A stretch of DNA of 64,000 nucleotides from a phage. Numbering within the stretch: the stretch's first letter is position 1; the number at the start of each line of letters is the position of its first letter. Of the stretch, positions 2,529 through 9,557 are shown one piece after another. The notes under the pieces are model-generated. The model did no database searches and was not told where the DNA came from. It was given only the letters and a program-made list of their open reading frames with translations. The stretch lies in the NCBI GenBank assembly GCA_020773975.1, contig GCA_020773975.1_3638.1, one strand, 5' to 3'. The translations under genes and the position numbers were made by a program.

Positions 2529-2604
2529 GTGACGGTAACTCAGTTGGTAGAGTGCCTTGCTGAAGACTAGGTGGTCACAGGTTCGAACCCTGTCCGTCAC
2601 ACCA
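2529..2604 (+). tRNA. tRNA-Phe (anticodon GAA)
   Basis: Hand fold: acceptor GTGACGG/CCGTCAC, D-arm CTCAGTTGGTAGAG, anticodon loop CTGAAGA, T-arm CACAGGTTCGAACCCTGT, encoded CCA. Confidence 0.65.
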
Positions 2605-2610
2605 AATTAT

Positions 2611-2689
2611 TGCAGAGTGGTGGAAATGGATTTACCATGTTAGGTTCATACCCTGAAGATTGCAGGTTCGACTCCTGCCTCTGCATCCA
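2611..2689 (+). tRNA. tRNA-Met (anticodon CAT; Met or lysidine-Ile)
   Basis: Hand fold: acceptor TGCAGAG/CTCTGCA, anticodon stem TTAGG/CCTGA loop TTCATAC, T-arm GCAGG-TTCGACT-CCTGC, encoded CCA. Confidence 0.6.
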
Positions 2690-2707
2690 AGAATAAGAGA
2701 GAGTATT

Positions 2708-3133
2708 TTGAAAATATGTGGTTGTTGTAATAAATTAAAGGATTTCTCTGAGTTTAGTAAAAAATCAGCAGCAAAAGACGGTTATGCAAGTAAATGTAAA
2801 GAGTGCCACAATAACTATGTTAGAACTAAATGGTATCCTAGGAATAAAAAGAAGCACATCTCTTCCGTAGCTAAATATAAGAAGCTAAACCCTTATAAAA
2901 TAATTTCACATAGGTATGGTATACCAGAAGATATTGTTGAAAATATAATGTCAAAAGGTGAATGCGAGATTTGTGGCTCAACAGAAAATCTTGTTTTTGA
3001 TCATATACATCTGACAAATACTGCTAGAGGATGTCTTTGTACTCTATGTAATATAATGATTGGAAGATTGGGTGATACGAACGAAGAGATTTTAGAAAAA
3101 CTCCCTAAAATTTTAGCCTATGTAAGTAAATAA
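2708..3133 (+). CDS. HNH homing endonuclease with N-terminal Cys-rich zinc-binding region
   Basis: ORF track 2660..3133 trimmed to in-frame TTG after AAGAGAGAG RBS (track start overlaps tRNA-Met); CxxC pairs and HNH signature ...NLVFDHIHLTNTARGCLCTLCN... Confidence 0.65.
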   Translation: MKICGCCNKLKDFSEFSKKSAAKDGYASKCKECHNNYVRTKWYPRNKKKHISSVAKYKKLNPYKIISHRYGIPEDIVENIMSKGECEICGSTENLVFDHIHLTNTARGCLCTLCNIMIGRLGDTNEEILEKLPKILAYVSK

Positions 3134-3139
3134 AATTTT

Positions 3140-3172
3140 GATTGGTTCGATTCCAATACTCGCAACCAGAAT
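3140..3172 (+). pseudogene. orphan tRNA 3' fragment (T-arm, acceptor 3' strand, CCA)
   Basis: TTGG-TTCGATT-CCAA followed by ACTCGCA-A-CCA; no complementary 5' acceptor strand upstream. Confidence 0.3.
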
Positions 3173-3298
3173 TAAAGTGGACACTAAGGAAGGTCGTGGC
3201 TGAGTAAACGGTAAGACACTCTCGACATGTAAAGGTTCCTTCGCCACTTTTCTCAAATAACTATAATAATAATCCAATCAATCTCCTCTCCTATGCCT

Positions 3299-3324
3299 AA
3301 CCCCGCCTCTTGCGGGGTTTTTCT
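3299..3324 (+). terminator. rho-independent terminator
   Basis: CCCCGC-CTCTT-GCGGGG hairpin followed by TTTTT. Confidence 0.6.
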
Positions 3325-3373
3325 TTATGTGCTAGTCTTTACGCATCTTGTTTTGTACTCAAGGATAGCTAAG

Positions 3374-4711
3374 ATGTTGCATGTTTTCAAAAAAGAAGAT
3401 TTTCAAAGAGAGTACGACATTTTGTGCTCTTTTATACCAAAAGGTGTTTATGATTTATTGTCGAAGCTGGATGTTAAGATAGCTGGCGGTGCAATAACCT
3501 CTTTGTTCTCTAATAGTAAAGTCAACGATCTTGATTTGTATTTCCCATCTTGGGAAAGCCTTGAGATATTCATTGCGTACATGATGGATAAAAATCTCTT
3601 AGGTGGAAAGTATGATTTAGCCGCACAGACAAACGGATGGGGAAATCAAAAAAGAACTTTTAGGTATTTTTATAACCTTGATAATGGGCAGGGTTCTCAT
3701 TTAGGTTTCACAGATCCTTTGTCAAGATGTAAAAATCTTCATTTTGAAGATGAAGATCTTCCAAACCTTACCAGAGTTGGTGTAACCGATAAGAGTGTGA
3801 TGCTGTACTTTGGGAAAGACCCTGTATTACAGTGTGTTGCTGTGGATGTGTTCAAAACAACAGAAGATATCTTTAGCAAAGTTGATTTTACAATCAACAT
3901 GGGCGCTTTTAACTTCAAGGATGGTGTGTGGGAATTTGATAGCAATTTCTTAAAACATATTGCTCAAAGGGTTTTAGTTGTAAATCATAAGACTGAATAC
4001 CCGATTATATCACTTTTGAGATCTGAAAAATATAAATCTCGTGGTTATACAATTTCGAAAAAAGAGACAATGAAACTGGCTATGACCATTGCTAGCCTTC
4101 AGATACAAAGTTGGGAATCGGCAAAGTCACATCTTAGCGGGATGTACGGAATGAAACTGTCTGATATCTTTGATGAGACAAAGCCGTTTTCACTTGATTT
4201 TTTGGTTGAGTGTCTAGACAGATTAGAATCTGGTTGCCAGCAGATAGACAAAAATGTTACCCCTGTGCAACCGTTGCCGTTTAATGATGTGTCCCAAGTT
4301 AATATGTTCAGTATTTTCCAAAGATTAAGAAAAGCAACAGGCAGGAAATACTTTACAAAACTATATGGGGTTTGTCCTGCTGAAGTTTTCTATCTTATGA
4401 TGCCAACAAAAGATACACATTATGTTGGGCTTCACAAAGAAGATATAGCAAATAATTTTCCAACTCTCAGACTTTATGTTGATGAAACGGAGGCAAGAGG
4501 AGAGTACAAAATTCTGTGTGAGAACGGAGAGATAGATGGCTATGGGTTTACAATATATCGGCCAGGTGCAGTTCTGTTAAAGGTTTCTGTAAGCGATACG
4601 TCAAAGATCCAATACGATATAGGTTATTTTAATGATTTGTGTATTTCTGAAAACAGAAAAACAACACTGAAAATTGAAAACATTATTGAGTGTGATGGGG
4701 ATATATCATGA
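3374..4711 (+). CDS. putative tRNA nucleotidyltransferase-like (CCA-adding/poly(A) polymerase family) protein
   Basis: ORF trimmed to ATG after AAGGA RBS; head motif KIAGGAITSLF...NDLDLYF aligns with GGAVRD...DxD, and SKVDFTINMGAF aligns with RRDxTINA at matching spacing. Confidence 0.5.
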   Translation: MLHVFKKEDFQREYDILCSFIPKGVYDLLSKLDVKIAGGAITSLFSNSKVNDLDLYFPSWESLEIFIAYMMDKNLLGGKYDLAAQTNGWGNQKRTFRYFYNLDNGQGSHLGFTDPLSRCKNLHFEDEDLPNLTRVGVTDKSVMLYFGKDPVLQCVAVDVFKTTEDIFSKVDFTINMGAFNFKDGVWEFDSNFLKHIAQRVLVVNHKTEYPIISLLRSEKYKSRGYTISKKETMKLAMTIASLQIQSWESAKSHLSGMYGMKLSDIFDETKPFSLDFLVECLDRLESGCQQIDKNVTPVQPLPFNDVSQVNMFSIFQRLRKATGRKYFTKLYGVCPAEVFYLMMPTKDTHYVGLHKEDIANNFPTLRLYVDETEARGEYKILCENGEIDGYGFTIYRPGAVLLKVSVSDTSKIQYDIGYFNDLCISENRKTTLKIENIIECDGDIS

Positions 4712-5109
4712 TATGGTTTAAAACGCTGTTAACTTTCTTTTCTAAGAACATAAAACAGATAGGTGTTGTTTTGTGTTGTGTGATGCTCGTTTGGGGTGTT
4801 GTGGAGATAAAGCATTGGTATAATGACCAGTTAACATCGTCATACAACGCAGGTGTCAGCGACACTGATCTTAAATGGGAGAGGATTAACCAGCAAGTTC
4901 GGGATCATAATAACGCTTTTAAAAAACAACAGCAGGATAAGATCGATGAGTTGTCAACCATGTTGGTGAAAGAGAGAGAAATTAATAACCAACTGAAAGA
5001 AGACCTTGATAAAAAGGTTAAAAGTTATAGCAAAACACAAGCAGGAAAACAGGTTTGCCTAGATAACCAGTTTGTTGATATTTATAACGATAGTCTGGGG
5101 GTGAAATGA
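4708..5109 (+). CDS. putative i-spanin (Rz-like)
   Basis: N-terminal TM helix followed by charged coiled-coil-like periplasmic domain; overlaps next gene start. Confidence 0.5.
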   Translation: MIWFKTLLTFFSKNIKQIGVVLCCVMLVWGVVEIKHWYNDQLTSSYNAGVSDTDLKWERINQQVRDHNNAFKKQQQDKIDELSTMLVKEREINNQLKEDLDKKVKSYSKTQAGKQVCLDNQFVDIYNDSLGVK

Positions 5110-5399
5110 AAAAGTGTGTCATCATGGTTCCTTTTCTATTATTGATGTTAATAGGGTGCACTTCACCACCTGAGAGAGTTGTTCCTGTTGCAAAAGAGAT
5201 CATAATAAGCGATATCTTAGCAAGACCACCCGCTGAGGCTATGATACCACCGAAAGAACCTGAAAAATTGCCAGGTGGTCTTAGTAATGCAGATGCTATC
5301 GAGGTGATTAAGAAAAACAACATTAAGGCTGCTGAAGATCGTATGAGATTAAGAACGTTACAGCAGTATGTGAAGACAATATTTTCTTCAGATAAGTAG
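5106..5399 (+). CDS. putative o-spanin (Rz1-like), proline-rich signal-peptide protein
   Basis: Signal peptide ending LIGC then Pro-rich mature region; immediately follows the i-spanin candidate. Confidence 0.45.
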   Translation: MKKCVIMVPFLLLMLIGCTSPPERVVPVAKEIIISDILARPPAEAMIPPKEPEKLPGGLSNADAIEVIKKNNIKAAEDRMRLRTLQQYVKTIFSSDK

Positions 5400-5407
5400 T
5401 TGACAAT

Positions 5408-5440
5408 GCCCTTATTTAATGATAAGGGCTTTATTTTTAT
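5408..5440 (+). terminator. rho-independent terminator
   Basis: GCCCTTAT...ATAAGGGC hairpin followed by T-run. Confidence 0.55.
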
Positions 5441-5494: not shown

Positions 5495-6841
5495 TTGAGT
5501 AAAGTATTTGGACCTGCCAGTCCTAAACAAAAAATGATTTTGGAGAGTAAAGCCCAAATTCTAATAATTGGCGGGGCCGCCGGGTGTTTGTCTAAAGACC
5601 ACGAGGTGTTGACACCATCTGGCTGGATTAAGATATCAGAATGGTCAGGGCAGGACATTCTGCAATATGATAAAGCCACTGGGGAGGCTAAATTTATCCC
5701 TCCTTTAGAGTTTGTTAAACTCCCTTGCGACAAACTTACAAGAATAGAAGGTAATGGCATTTGTCAAGAGCTATCTGACGAACATACTGTGATTTATAAA
5801 CCAGACTATAAATCACAGCCAAGAACACTTTCTTTTTCTGAAGTGGCAGAAAGACATAACAACTCTGTTAAAAAAGGTTGGACAGGTAAGTTCATAACTA
5901 CATTTAACTATGATGGGCCTGGGATAGACATGACAGAAGGGGAATTAAGGCTTCAGGTTGCTGTCATGGCTGATGGGAGAGTTGTTAAAGAAGGGAAAGA
6001 TAATTATACACAGATGCGCTTTGCTAAAAAGCGTAAATATGACCGCTTAATCGAACTTTGTAAAAAGTTTGGATTAAGATATGAAGACAGAGGATCAAAA
6101 CCCAGTGAAAGATATACCACTGGGGAACAGTACGAGGTCATTGTATGGCCTAAATATCCTGATAAAAAATTTACAGAGAAATACTATCAGTGTTCAAATG
6201 AACAACTGGAGATAATACTTGATGAGATTTTTCATTGGGATGGTTCTTTTTGTAAGCCATATGGCGGTAAAACACATAACAGCTTTACAGGTAGATATTT
6301 TACTGCTCATAAGACGAACGCTGATTTTATTCAGTTTGTAGGATCTTCTCTTGGTTATAATACCACCATAAGCCATGACACAAGAAGTGGAAAGGACAGT
6401 TATACTGTTAATATTATGGCTAGAGGAAAAGGATTAAGGTCACTGGCTAATAAAGACAGAAAAGCTGAGTTTAAAGCGTTTACACCTACGGATGGGTTTA
6501 AATACTGCTTTGTAACACAAACAGGTTTCTTTGTTACCAGACTGGAAGATTGTGTGGTTGTCACTGGGAATAGTGGAAAATCATATCTCCTACAATTGAT
6601 GCCGCTTGCTTATGTCGATGACCCGCAGACAGCATGTATAATGTTTCGTAGGACAACACCTCAATTGACAGGTGCAGGTGGACTTTTTGATACAGCGAAA
6701 AGTATTTATTTGCAACTCGATAAGGAATGGAAGCCGAAGTTCAGGGAGAAAGCTCTGGAAGCAATTTTCCCATCTGGGGCAAAGGTGTTGTGGAGACACA
6801 TGGAGTATGAGAATAACAAATTAGATCATCAGGGTGAATAG
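5495..6841 (+). CDS. terL: terminase large subunit, N-terminal coding segment (P-loop ATPase) containing an in-frame intein
   Basis: TTG start after GGAGG RBS; Walker A split as IIGGAAG-[intein]-SGKSY; lies directly upstream of portal; ORF runs to a stop inside intron-like sequence, real exon end probably 6817-6829. Confidence 0.7.
   Translation: MSKVFGPASPKQKMILESKAQILIIGGAAGCLSKDHEVLTPSGWIKISEWSGQDILQYDKATGEAKFIPPLEFVKLPCDKLTRIEGNGICQELSDEHTVIYKPDYKSQPRTLSFSEVAERHNNSVKKGWTGKFITTFNYDGPGIDMTEGELRLQVAVMADGRVVKEGKDNYTQMRFAKKRKYDRLIELCKKFGLRYEDRGSKPSERYTTGEQYEVIVWPKYPDKKFTEKYYQCSNEQLEIILDEIFHWDGSFCKPYGGKTHNSFTGRYFTAHKTNADFIQFVGSSLGYNTTISHDTRSGKDSYTVNIMARGKGLRSLANKDRKAEFKAFTPTDGFKYCFVTQTGFFVTRLEDCVVVTGNSGKSYLLQLMPLAYVDDPQTACIMFRRTTPQLTGAGGLFDTAKSIYLQLDKEWKPKFREKALEAIFPSGAKVLWRHMEYENNKLDHQGE
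5585..6571 (+). mobile_element. intein (329 aa) with LAGLIDADG-type endonuclease motifs in the terminase P-loop
   Basis: Starts with Cys (CLSKDHEVLTPSGW), ends VVVTGN followed by Ser; internal LQVAVMADG and LDEIFHWDG motifs; removal restores GGAAGSGKS. Confidence 0.7.
6809..6817 (+). repeat. 9-bp direct repeat GAGAATAAC (copy 1) flanking the terminase intervening region
   Basis: Identical 9-mer at 8778-8786; joining the copies puts exon 1 and the C-terminal segment in frame (MEYENN-PDYLAF). Confidence 0.5.
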
Positions 6842-7537
6842 CTTGCCCTTCGTGCCTATAACGGTGGAACTCCCTATGGGAAAATACCGTGCCACAGAAT
6901 ATGGAAATATAAACTCTGGGTGTAACGACTATCTCCGATGAGTGTAGGAGAGTAGAATCACAAGCGATTGGTGATCCAAACGGCACGCCAAGGATGGAAG
7001 ATATAGTCTGTTCCACATGGAAACATGTGGCGGGTGTTTTAGCACACCGCCTCAGTGTAGCGAACTGAGGGGACAATAAGTTGCAATATACCTTTATAGG
7101 TTTCGATGAGGGTAGAACAGTGTGCTCTCTATAAACCCCTTTAATTGACGGGTAACTCTTTATACATATCACCACTAAGTAGGTATGGTAACATATTTAT
7201 GGTCAACGGTAATGACGTTGAGTATAGTAACAGTGTGAATGTTTAGACAATCCGCAGCGAAGCATCCCTACGGGATGAACGTTCAACGACTATCGCTTAC
7301 GGGCGTTAGGGCCAAGCGGTGAGGGAAACCTCCGGTTGATTATCAACCGCCGAAACAGGGGGGTGTGTAATAACACACAAGATATAGTCTGATCTGCATG
7401 GTGACATGCAGCAGCACGTAGTGGTGCGGGATAAGAGTAGCGATCTTATCTGAACAAAAACGACACAATTCACATGGTCACAGATAGATTATCTGATATC
7501 TCGTCTACGTTCAAACTCTAAATATCCGAGCAGGATG
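6830..7537 (+). mobile_element. group I intron-like intervening sequence(s) in terminase, no ORF
   Basis: Conserved core elements: P-like AATTGACGGG (7143), Q AATCCGCAGC (7250), R GTTCAACGACTATC (7282), S AAGATATAGTCTGATC (7379); a second R/S-like pair at about 6926 and 7003. Confidence 0.55.
7381..7430 (+). repeat. 50-nt intron core block (S element to P9 region), copy 1
   Basis: GATATAGTCTGATCTGCATGGTGACATGCAGCAGCACGTAGTGGTGCGGG; second copy at 8674-8723 with 2 mismatches. Confidence 0.7.
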
Positions 7538-7773
7538 GTTATCTCTTGTAACCCTGATCCAGATCATAAGATCAAGGAGTTGATTTCTTGGTATTTAGAT
7601 GATGAGGGATATCCTATACCTGAACGCGATGGGGTGATTAGATGGTTTATAAGACGTGACGGGGAGTTTATCTGGGGTGAATCAGAGCAAGAATTAATTG
7701 AAAAGTATTGGGATGGCAAGGATGAGAAAAGAAAGCCTAAACCACTTTCATTTTCCTTCATTTCCGCAACCAT
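7538..7773 (+). CDS. possible internal terminase exon (or co-converted exon fragment), about 79 codons
   Basis: Open frame between intron-like regions (VISCNPDPDHKIKELISWYLDDEG...FISAT); LISWYLDDE resembles a Walker B strand; begins right after an intron-terminal ATG and ends at CCAT before a GTGG guide-like sequence; frame relation to downstream segment unresolved. Confidence 0.3.
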
Positions 7774-7902
7774 TAAAAGAATAGTGGCTTCATGCAGTAA
7801 TGCATGTCGAATAACTTCGTTAATTGCTGGGAAACCCTTTGTATAAGGGCAATCAGCAGCTATAATTACTTTTCCGAAACTGTAGTAGGGAGAATGTTTG
7901 AG

Positions 7903-8589
7903 ATGAAAAATTTAGGATTTTTAGGGTATTCCCATTATTGTGCGACGTATGATGGAAGAATTTATAGTTTGTATTCCCACAAATTTTTACATCCTAATGT
8001 CCATAAGAAAACTGGCTATGCAATGTTAACGTTGTGTGAGGATGGTAAAAAGTTTCAAGTTCTTGTCCATAGGGTTATTGCTTTTGCTTTTGTCGAGAAT
8101 GATAGCCCTGATACAAAAACTCAAGTGAACCATTTAGATGGAAACAAACTTAATAACGCAGCGTGGAATCTTGAGTGGACAACTGCAAAGGAAAACACAC
8201 ATCACGCACATGAAATAGGGCTTAAGAAGTCTTATGTAAACAGTTACAGGCCTCTTGATGATAACACTGCCCTTGAGATATGCAGATTACTTGAGCAGGG
8301 TGCTAGAGTAAAGGATATCAGTGAGATGTTTGGTATTGGGCAGACTGTGGTTAGTAGTATCAAAGCTGGGAGAGTCTACCCAGACATTTCTAAAGAGTTT
8401 AATTTCAGGATGGTTCCTTCTTCCAACAGAATTAGTGAATCCAAAGTTATAGGGATATGTGAAGATCTGAGAGACGGTATCCTAAGCATTAATAAGATAT
8501 CTAAAAAATGGGGTGTTAGTTTTAATCTTGTTAGAAGAATAAAAGATAGAAAAACTTACATCTATATCTCAAACAACTATGAATGGTAA
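7903..8589 (+). CDS. intron-encoded HNH homing endonuclease
   Basis: ATG 9 nt after GGGAGA (alternative ATG at 7894); N-terminal GYSHY..YDGRIYS NUMOD-like motif, HNH signature VNHLDGNKLNN...NLEW...ENTHHAH, C-terminal helix-turn-helix-like repeats. Confidence 0.65.
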   Translation: MKNLGFLGYSHYCATYDGRIYSLYSHKFLHPNVHKKTGYAMLTLCEDGKKFQVLVHRVIAFAFVENDSPDTKTQVNHLDGNKLNNAAWNLEWTTAKENTHHAHEIGLKKSYVNSYRPLDDNTALEICRLLEQGARVKDISEMFGIGQTVVSSIKAGRVYPDISKEFNFRMVPSSNRISESKVIGICEDLRDGILSINKISKKWGVSFNLVRRIKDRKTYIYISNNYEW

Positions 8590-8673
8590 TGTAGTTCAAC
8601 GACTATCCCGCAAGGGAGTAGATCGCAAGCTAATGGCGTTCGAAAAGCGAAGCACCCATTATGTGTGGGTGGT

Positions 8674-8723
8674 GATATAGTCTACTCTGCATGGTGACAT
8701 GCAGCAGCACGTAGTGGTGCGGG
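8674..8723 (+). repeat. 50-nt intron core block, copy 2
   Basis: GATATAGTCTACTCTGCATGGTGACATGCAGCAGCACGTAGTGGTGCGGG; near-identical to 7381-7430. Confidence 0.7.
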
Positions 8724-8771
8724 GGTTGGCGTTGCGTCCAACCTTGAATACAAGGATTCGATAATCCTCCC

Positions 8772-9557
8772 ATGCTGGAGAATAACCCAGATTATCTAGC
8801 ATTCCTTGAAGGTCTTCCAGAGGTAGAAAAAGCCCAGTTGTTGCATGGGAACTGGAACGCAAGACCTGAAGGGGCAAACTATTTCCAGAGATCTTATTTA
8901 AAAGAGGTTCCCTGCTTACCTCTCGGTGTTGTATCTGTTCGCCCGTATGATAAAGCAGGTACAGAAAGAACATCTGGAAACAGATATCCTGACTTTACAG
9001 CATCTGTTAAGGTAAGTAAAGACAATGATGGCTTTTACTACTTGTCTGGTGATTATTGTCCTGAATTTTTTGATGATGGTAGATATTCGACTCAAACGCA
9101 GGGAAGATTCTGTAAAAAAGCTGGGGAACGTGATGTTATCATTAAGAAACAGGCTTATTTTGATGGTGATGATGTCACTATAATTTTCAGTGTTGACCCA
9201 GGACAAGCAGGAATAAGTGAATTTTTAACAAGCTCTCGTGAACTAATAGCGGAAGGGTTTACAGTAGAAAAAGATCCTACACCAAGCAATAAATCAAAAT
9301 TAACACGATTCACACCGTTTGCAAAACTTGCTCAAGCAGGTATGGTGAGAATAGTTCGTGATAGTTTTGATCCTAAAACTTATGAAGCCCTTATGACAGA
9401 GCTTGAAAAGTTCAATGGGGAAAGGAGTACGACGACAAGAAAAGACGATTGGGTCGACGCCATTTCTTCTGGGATAAATTATCTTGAAAAAGAAGAAATA
9501 GTCAAACCTGTTGTTATTCCAAAAATTGTAGCTCCTACCTTGTATAAAAGAATATAA
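8772..9557 (+). CDS. terL: terminase large subunit, C-terminal coding segment (nuclease domain)
   Basis: ORF track; VTIIFSVDPGQAG and DDWVDAISSG resemble terminase nuclease acidic motifs; in frame with exon 1 across the GAGAATAAC repeats; real 5' boundary probably 8775-8790. Confidence 0.6.
   Translation: MLENNPDYLAFLEGLPEVEKAQLLHGNWNARPEGANYFQRSYLKEVPCLPLGVVSVRPYDKAGTERTSGNRYPDFTASVKVSKDNDGFYYLSGDYCPEFFDDGRYSTQTQGRFCKKAGERDVIIKKQAYFDGDDVTIIFSVDPGQAGISEFLTSSRELIAEGFTVEKDPTPSNKSKLTRFTPFAKLAQAGMVRIVRDSFDPKTYEALMTELEKFNGERSTTTRKDDWVDAISSGINYLEKEEIVKPVVIPKIVAPTLYKRI
8778..8786 (+). repeat. 9-bp direct repeat GAGAATAAC (copy 2)
   Basis: Identical to 6809-6817; see copy 1. Confidence 0.5.

Follow-up and report, generated by a model that had tools for sequence, protein, structure and literature searches.

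What does a phage gain from a nucleotidyltransferase encoded downstream of its tRNA genes? The question is raised by a gene at positions 3374 to 4711 of a 64,000-nucleotide stretch of phage DNA (contig GCA_020773975.1_3638.1 of GenBank assembly GCA_020773975.1; the whole stretch is called the window below). From the sequence alone, the original prediction had read its product as a nucleotidyltransferase with a Pol-beta-type head of class II, the class of CCA-adding enzymes and poly(A) polymerases, which may maintain or repair tRNA 3' ends or else have been retargeted to another substrate. Our analysis partly supports that interpretation, as being right on the fold and wrong on the job. The gene probably encodes a phage nucleotidyltransferase of the Gad2 family, whose most likely role would be counter-defence against the host Gabija system (GajA/GajB), and membership of this family fits the fallback of an enzyme retargeted to another substrate.

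3374-4711, + strand: gad2-like gene, 445 amino acids plus stop; full-length homologue of SPbetaL7 Gad2

Direct searches of Pfam (in a copy without PF26128), NCBIfam, PADLOC and the PDB sequences gave no match for the window protein. A profile of 39 homologues drew only spurious synaptotagmin matches from the PDB sequences, and PHROGs returned families of unknown function together with a weak 'nucleotidyltransferase' match (E 0.014). The relatives of the protein were more informative. All 84 of those retrieved from a large protein database bear a precomputed PF26128.2 assignment, among them P0001, which is 94% identical to the window protein and of equal length; PF26128 goes by the name 'Gad2' in the table of genes for a prophage locus of Brevibacillus laterosporus. 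A tblastn search of 50,697 phage records with the window protein matched 141 of them, among which were Vequintavirinae-type Erwinia phages, e.g. Hena1, and the SPbetaL7 coding sequence annotated 'Gad2' (OQ921347.1). By BLASTP, SPbetaL7 Gad2 was matched at E 3e-31 (36% identity over 170 amino acids of the neck), with a second segment at E 1e-9 (42% over 50 amino acids of the N-terminal motif A region). When the 39-sequence family profile was compared with SPbetaL7 Gad2 by hhalign, the probability was 100% (E 9.8e-74) over 340 columns that included the C-terminal domain. The B. laterosporus homologue (P0066) shares 44% identity with SPbetaL7 Gad2 and matches the query at E 2.4e-32. Judged on its sequence, the window protein is a full-length Gad2 homologue (PF26128) that keeps every highly conserved residue of the family.

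Gad2 (Gabija anti-defence 2) was described by Yirmiya et al. (bioRxiv 10.1101/2023.05.01.538930). In that study, knockout of gad2 left SPbetaL7 fully sensitive to Gabija, and co-expression of a B. laterosporus prophage homologue that was not toxic abolished Gabija defence; SPbetaL7 Gad2 expressed alone was toxic, and AlphaFold2 predicted a nucleotidyltransferase domain, the sole domain mentioned. Gad2 was used again as a known Gabija inhibitor in a later preprint. A 2026 pangenome study of Erwinia had called gad2 computationally in Erwinia phages, in perfect co-occurrence with NARP2, a pathway of NAD reconstitution (PMC13480210). Like the window protein, the SPbetaL7 and Brevibacillus Gad2 proteins consist of a nucleotidyltransferase head and neck followed by a C-terminal alpha/beta domain, and the invariants GG, T-S, N-D-x-D-x-Y, K, Q, DFTxxM, N..T..P..S..R..KY and GMYG are common to all three.

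We then considered the motifs on which the original prediction had been built, namely KIAGGAITSLF (residues 34-44), DLDL (52-55) and SKVDFTINMGAF (168-179). All are present, and their conservation in 187 full-length, diverse family members, aligned after a search of 1.84 billion cluster representatives, speaks against chance; the family numbers 5476 cluster representatives (50% identity) at E<=1e-3. The conservation values given for the head and neck refer to these 187 members. The parts of the protein, in order along the gene, are the following.

3473-3544, + strand: motif A region, residues 34-57 (KIAGGAITSLF...NDLDLYF), with the GG turn and the metal-binding D52-x-D54
3551-3781, + strand: clade-specific, mostly helical insertion, approximately residues 60-136, placed by the alignment, a gap in hhalign and the secondary structure of the model (predicted local distance difference test, pLDDT, 64-90)
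3785-3838, + strand: strands with T138, K140 and Q153 (87%, 90% and 97% conserved)
3869-3910, + strand: equivalent of motif B, residues 166-179 (IFSKVDFTINMGAF), with D171 invariant
3968-4057, + strand: neck with the equivalent of motif D, residues 199-228, in a low-confidence part of the alignment, assigned by family conservation
4139-4150, + strand: neck family signature G256-M-Y258-G259, assigned by family conservation
4301-4708, + strand: C-terminal alpha/beta domain with an ADP-ribosyltransferase (ART) fold, residues 310-445, variable across the family

Eight positions (G38, G39, D52, D54, Y56, D171, T207 and K219) are identical in 187/187 members. At least 93% conservation was found for T42, S43, N51, Q153, M176, N204, P210, S213, R216 and Y220, and likewise for G224, Y225, G256, Y258 and G259. 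Around D52, D54 and D171, about 20 further polar residues are more than 90% conserved, and the window protein has the consensus residue in every column conserved at 90% or above.

An alignment-based AlphaFold2 model of the protein (mean pLDDT 84.3; predicted template modelling score, pTM, 0.84) was disordered only at the linker 287-307. Its closest match by Foldseek was the T. maritima CCA-adding enzyme (E 6.6e-7, probability 1.0), and the top 46 PDB matches comprised 45 chains of class II CCA-, CC- or A-adding enzymes or poly(A) polymerases plus one FAM46A chain, with cGAS-type enzymes appearing only at E>0.1. The reference structures of class II were E. coli poly(A) polymerase I (PAP I; 3aql), CCA-adding enzymes (3h37, 1miv and 1ou5) and the A. 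aeolicus CC- and A-adding enzymes (3wfo and 4wby). In the fold comparison, E. coli PAP I scored 13.8 (3.6 Å over 194 residues, 19% identity), followed by the CCA-adding enzyme of T. maritima (13.4), the Aquifex CC-adding (12.5) and A-adding (12.2) enzymes, and the CCA-adding enzymes of Arabidopsis (11.9) and B. stearothermophilus (10.6); FAM46B scored 10.4 and the human CCA-adding enzyme 9.5. Other transferases of the Pol-beta fold (LnuA, ANT(2''), MenT, Pol beta/mu, TUTases, CD-NTases and RelA/SpoT) reached 5.8 or less. Since class II enzymes lead the comparison, the head and neck are specifically of class II type. The TENT5/FAM46 proteins (6jyj and 8exf) are eukaryotic mRNA poly(A) polymerases that show no sequence similarity to the window protein and have a different C-terminal region.

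The proposed class II Pol-beta head was thus borne out for the head and neck by the model and the fold searches, and structure prediction against CCA-adding enzymes, one of the checks suggested at the outset, agreed. Another, the Pfam search for PolyA_pol, did not: PF01743 had no match at E<=10 in the window protein and none in eight of nine relatives, and the best match among relatives, in P0073, covered the head only (E 0.0054, 17.5 bits against a cut-off of 23). The window protein differs from class II enzymes in having no Pfam match, at 13-19% identity, with the RD, RR and EDxxR elements replaced, and in having neither the helical body and tail nor the RNA-binding C-terminal extension.

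These replacements were located by hhalign with a four-sequence profile of CCA enzymes built from PDB alignments, which was needed for motifs A, B and D to align (E 2e-4, probability 23-46%); against a single phage CCA-adding enzyme, motif A alone aligned (E 0.025). The pairing sets GGAITS against GGAVRD and D52-x-D54 against D40-x-D42 of the Bacillus (B. stearothermophilus) enzyme. T42-S43 (93% and 96% conserved) occupy the place of the class II R-D, as had been proposed, while GG and DxD are invariant. In motif B, whose RRD serves class II enzymes in recognising the ribose 2'-OH, K169-V170-D171-FTINM pairs with R-R-D-FTMNA, so that the RR of the class II RRDFTINA is K169-V170 here, and the family consensus is x-F-D. 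In the neck, whose pattern reads R199...N204..T207..P210..S213..R216..K219-Y220...G224-Y225, the residues T207..P210..S213..R216..K219 pair at lower confidence with E-D-x-x-R..R..R of motif D, which places T207, P210 and S213 (all at least 95% conserved) opposite the E, D and R of the EDxxR template. The motif spacing, which had been taken to match class II, does not: motifs A and B lie 133 residues apart, compared with about 86 in the B. stearothermophilus CCA-adding enzyme and 75 in SPbetaL7 Gad2. The difference is due to the clade-specific insertion of about 75 residues, which is absent from SPbetaL7 Gad2 and most Gad2 proteins.

As far as the alignment goes, Gad2 keeps those portions of motifs A and B that bind metal or form the scaffold, and has replaced all three nucleotide-binding and selection elements of class II (RD, RR and the EDxxR template). 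That the replacements are themselves invariant in Gad2 indicates a remodelled but living nucleotide pocket. Judging by strand order, Q153 would lie on the strand that bears the third carboxylate (E79) in the Bacillus enzyme and may be its equivalent.

Where class II enzymes have a helical body and tail with which they hold the tRNA elbow, the window protein has its C-terminal domain. Modelled alone, residues 310-445 gave a compact alpha/beta domain (pLDDT 90.5) that in the fold comparison scored 5.2 with the RNA 2'-phosphotransferase KptA and with IcmQ, 5.1 with Arr, and 4.7 with diphtheria toxin and PARP15; pertussis toxin, Tne2, ParT, MbcT and DarT scored lower. The relatives of this fold, the BC2332-like proteins (2aua), Tpt1/KptA, Arr and the catalytic domains of diphtheria toxin and PARP, have no sequence similarity to the domain. 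BC2332-like proteins form SCOP family d.166.1.6 in the ADP-ribosylation superfamily (PMC3000352), and BC2332 has been predicted to resemble diphtheria-toxin-type transferases (PMC3024214). Across the family, conservation within the domain reaches 76% at most. The top polar positions, K, S and E (76%, 69% and 61%), are Q316, K329 and K403 in the window protein, and the catalytic sets H-Y-E, R-S-E or R-H-R-R of Tpt1 are not conserved in the domain. Despite its fold, the domain is thus probably not an ADP-ribosyltransferase in the window protein, and it would instead be a fast-evolving recognition module. About 9 kb upstream of its gad2-like gene, phage 4MG encodes a nicotinamide phosphoribosyltransferase. 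The co-occurrence of gad2 and NARP2 may be of interest beside an ART-fold domain of NAD-binding type, with shared lineage as the alternative.

The protein would be built of a head and neck derived from class II, a clade-specific helical insertion and, where class II enzymes bind tRNA by their body and tail, an ART-fold domain. In the model that we propose, Gad2 would act catalytically, by nucleotidyl transfer at the DxD centre, and not by caging as Gad1 does with the Gabija complex, and the variable ART-fold domain would serve target recognition, not catalysis. As of February 2026 the mechanism of Gad2 was described as 'yet to be elucidated' (PMC12904381). GajA is a DNA nickase that combines an OLD-family ATPase with a Toprim domain, and Gabija acts at phage DNA ends under RecBCD block and prevents genome circularisation (PMC12407980). 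Our preferred mechanism is untemplated addition of nucleotides to a polynucleotide 3'-OH, after which the ends that Gabija engages would no longer be recognised. Given Gad2 membership, this is a tentative choice that we would not call probable; nucleotidylylation of a Gabija subunit would come next, followed by synthesis of an inhibitory nucleotide.

The surroundings of the gene bear on this assignment, and the features that matter are these.

263-2689, + strand: tRNA array of 12 genes, all with encoded CCA; context, not counted in the functional unit
3299-3319, + strand: terminator-like hairpin with T run, just 5' of the gene, closing the tRNA/Endonuclease VII region
4708-5399, + strand: Rz-like (4708-5109) and Rz1-like (5106-5399) spanin genes, forming a conserved three-gene block with the gad2-like gene
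5408-5429, + strand: terminator-like hairpin closing the gad2-like/Rz/Rz1 block

In its longest version, the open reading frame (ORF) runs on the + strand from ATG 3293 to 4711 and would encode 472 amino acids. Homologues both close and distant begin at the Met of MLHVF/MIHTF, that is at ATG 3374, which gives 445 amino acids; AAGGA lies about 10 nucleotides 5' of this ATG, and the hairpin at 3299-3319 falls within the longer version. For these reasons 3374-4711 was taken as the gene, in agreement with the original prediction. Its stop codon overlaps the start of the Rz-like i-spanin gene by ATGA at 4708-4711, and the gad2-like/Rz/Rz1 block is kept in all ten Vequintavirinae-type loci. No convincing sigma-70 promoter was recognised for the gad2-like gene itself. 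Escherichia phages 18-1-2, 19-1-2, 24-2-1 and TH18 share 95.5% identity with the region, and phage Av-05 (Vequintavirinae, Avunavirus) shares 89%. The Av-05 orthologue, Av05_004, is labelled 'hypothetical protein' and precedes two Rz-like spanin genes and the large terminase, an order also seen in the window. The phage 4MG orthologue is 50% identical, and the order of tRNA array, gad2-like gene, Rz, Rz1 and terminase is that of the window.

Upstream, the original prediction had counted 13 tRNA genes and one without encoded CCA. ARAGORN found 11 and Rfam added the one at 421-493, which makes 12, and CCA follows each of them; Tyr 263-352 and Ser 1426-1515 were called by ARAGORN and not by Rfam at its gathering score. 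A thirteenth or intron-split tRNA around the Endonuclease VII-type ORF was looked for and not found, and nothing tRNA-like scored in 3080-3380 even at E<=10. The Endonuclease VII-type ORF itself (PF02945, 2660-3133) begins within tRNA-Met (2611-2689), and 3' of it, at about 3139-3168, lies an orphan tRNA 3' half (T-arm plus ...CGCAACCA), for which neither a matching 5' half nor an Rfam tRNA score was found. Only 82% of 2600-5200 has a counterpart in the 95%-identical phages, split into two segments, which points to a possibly recent mobile insertion at the end of the tRNA array. Within the array, a 187-amino-acid ORF (688-1251) has a strong DUF7338 match (E 3e-65).

The array ends about 700 nucleotides upstream of the gad2-like gene, and the possibility that this proximity is a family trait was addressed by a tRNA scan of 80 IMG/VR loci and 6 annotated loci. 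In the ten Vequintavirinae-type loci, a tRNA array ends 110-530 bp upstream in every case. Among the other 70, a tRNA lies within 10 kb in six and within 1.5 kb in three; flanking tRNA genes occur in 6/36 context lineages (grouped by shared neighbours), and no tRNA was found near the validated Gad2 loci of SPbetaL7 and Brevibacillus. The adjacency is thus inherited synteny of one phage lineage, and a functional tRNA link as a trait of the Gad2 family was rejected. When neighbouring ORFs within 5 kb were clustered across the 36 context lineages, no conserved partner gene emerged; the gad2-like gene is stand-alone. The only recurrent neighbours were of generic kinds, namely primase-helicase, Pol III alpha, DNA methylases, metallophosphoesterase, and DNA and RNA ligases, with RNA-ligase-like genes in about 5-6 of the 36 contexts.

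Some of these neighbourhoods contain RNA-repair genes. In the Brevibacillus laterosporus CP033464.1 prophage (L002, 5939-13169), an RlaP nucleotidyltransferase and a complete CCA-adding enzyme (PolyA_pol, RNAbd and HD domains) precede Gad2; 3 kb downstream there is an RNA ligase (PF09414), past which comes a DHHA1 protein. The jumbo phage CBB (L005) encodes Rnl1, Pnkp and an HD protein at most 4 kb from its Gad2 homologue, and a Thg1-like gene is found near the homologue of a Vibrio phage. The occurrence of RNA-repair genes near gad2 in unrelated contexts is only a lead, for which there was no matched baseline.

Downstream of the spanin genes, the large terminase (TerL) is fragmented across 5495-9557. 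The ORF at 5495-6841 carries an insertion of about 330 amino acids inside Walker A (IIGGAAG/CLSKDHEVL...VVTGN/SGKSYLLQL, the slashes marking its borders), at a point where 4MG TerL is uninterrupted; the insertion is intein-like (Cys start, GN/Ser end) and has no Pfam match. TerL resumes in the ORFs 7535-7846 and 8772-9557 (Terminase_6C). The ORF 7804-8589, between these two, encodes an HNH_3 plus HTH homing endonuclease, which suggests one or more introns.

Several observations weigh against counter-defence by a Gad2 enzyme. The PF26128 assignment reaches the window protein by way of its 94%-identical relative P0001, and the validated Gad2 proteins lie outside the Vequintavirinae clade, at a core identity of only about 30-36%. 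The window protein is unlike other Gad2 proteins in two features of its clade, namely a 75-residue insertion after motif A and a divergent C-terminal domain, the latter without the common K, S and E residues. Q153 may stand at the position of the third catalytic carboxylate. Unlike the validated genes, the window gene follows a tRNA array, forms an operon with spanin genes and belongs to a phage of a Gram-negative host, while in SPbeta-like phages gad2 sits in their 'anti-Gabija locus'. Coupling to lysis genes, with no promoter of its own, is an odd setting for an early anti-defence gene. Finally, every mechanistic step past a nucleotidyltransferase fold with an intact DxD is inferred.

A genuine tRNA nucleotidyltransferase (CCA- or A-adding) or poly(A) polymerase, maturing or repairing the tRNA 3' ends of phage or host, would account for the nearest solved structures, which are such enzymes, and for the array upstream with its synteny in all ten Vequintavirinae-type loci; the sub-threshold PolyA_pol head match of a distant member and the weak PHROG match are in line with it. 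We consider it very improbable. The CTP/ATP-selecting RD, RR and EDxxR have become T42-S43, K169-V170 and T207/P210/S213, an ART-fold domain stands in place of the part that holds the tRNA, PF01743 is missing from the window protein and from eight of nine relatives, the tRNAs already encode CCA, and proximity to tRNA genes is confined largely to one lineage. A genuine CCA-adding enzyme adjoins Gad2 in the Brevibacillus prophage; the two are not redundant, which argues that Gad2 does not perform CCA addition. The proposed maintenance or repair of tRNA 3' ends is therefore unsupported. A further candidate is a catalytically dead pseudo-enzyme that, in the manner of Gad1, would bind Gabija or another host factor stoichiometrically and so block it. 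Loss of the class II nucleotide-binding residues, a glutamine in the possible place of the third carboxylate and a C-terminal domain that varies as fast as expected of an arms-race binding interface would suit such a protein. However, conservation of the three acidic residues D52, D54 and D171 in every member, with their polar surroundings, is typical of a live active site and makes this reading quite improbable.

A Gad2-type enzyme might alternatively act on RNA (in particular tRNA ends or fragments) and counter tRNA damage by immune nucleases of the OLD and Toprim families, GajA among them. In that case, the fold shared with RNA-end enzymes, the Tpt1-like ART fold and the neighbouring RNA-repair genes would all carry meaning. 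The head and neck are nearest to RNA 3'-end transferases, and RNA-repair genes occur near the Brevibacillus, CBB and Vibrio phage homologues. MenT/AbiEii and other minimal nucleotidyltransferase toxins likewise have a Pol-beta fold, take part in phage-bacterium conflict and modify tRNA 3' ends; tRNA-modifying MenT nucleotidyltransferases are toxic, and the toxicity of SPbetaL7 Gad2 upon over-expression on its own parallels this. The isoelectric point, as a test of nucleic-acid binding, was uninformative, since a genuine phage CCA-adding enzyme is acidic (5.9) as well as the Gad2 family (median 5.2). Cleavage of tRNA is documented for P2 OLD, the founding homologue of GajA, which targets anticodon arms, and for the Toprim nuclease AriB, which targets tRNA-Lys (PMC12445682). 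Against this, GajA is reported to be a DNA nickase, and the reported targets of Gabija are phage DNA ends and circularisation rather than tRNA; the RNA-repair neighbourhood has neither a baseline control nor a single conserved partner, and the tRNA adjacency is lineage-specific. On balance this alternative is improbable. The protein might also be a nucleotidyltransferase that, in this clade, has nothing to do with Gabija and serves, for instance, in host takeover, superinfection exclusion or lysis. This is suggested by the ATGA coupling to the spanin genes between bracketing terminator-like hairpins, conserved in the Vequintavirinae-type loci, and by the clade-specific insertion and altered C-terminal domain. 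Yet homologues outside the clade never adjoin spanin genes and the core active site is unchanged; nor is any nucleotidyltransferase known to us to take part in spanin function. We regard this as the least probable of the explanations considered.

The preferred reading thus remains counter-defence against Gabija by a Gad2-family enzyme. A broader idea, which we think unlikely, is that Gad2 proteins are modifiers of RNA or polynucleotide ends that arose from tRNA 3'-end transferases and were fused to an end-binding module of the Tpt1/BC2332-like ART fold. If this were true, Gad2 would alter the nucleic-acid ends or tRNA fragments that Gabija senses or makes, without touching the Gabija proteins; Gabija would be tied to the tRNA-directed activities of P2 OLD and of AriB of PARIS (PMC12445682), and the recurrent tRNA and RNA-repair neighbourhoods of gad2 would become meaningful.

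The advance is at the level of annotation, as the protein adds a new member to an established anti-Gabija family, Gad2, and not a new kind of system. Gabija is among the commonest bacterial anti-phage systems, and the placement in the Gad2 family concerns a conserved gene of Vequintavirinae-type phages of E. coli, Salmonella, Klebsiella and Erwinia, therapy candidates included, that public records still label 'hypothetical protein'. To what was known of Gad2, the analysis adds the ART-fold assignment of the C-terminal half, evidence that tRNA proximity is not a family trait, and a residue-level account of which parts of its CCA-adding/poly(A)-polymerase ancestry Gad2 retains and which it has lost. 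It narrows the question of the Gad2 substrate and offers geneticists and biochemists an orthologue compatible with E. coli.

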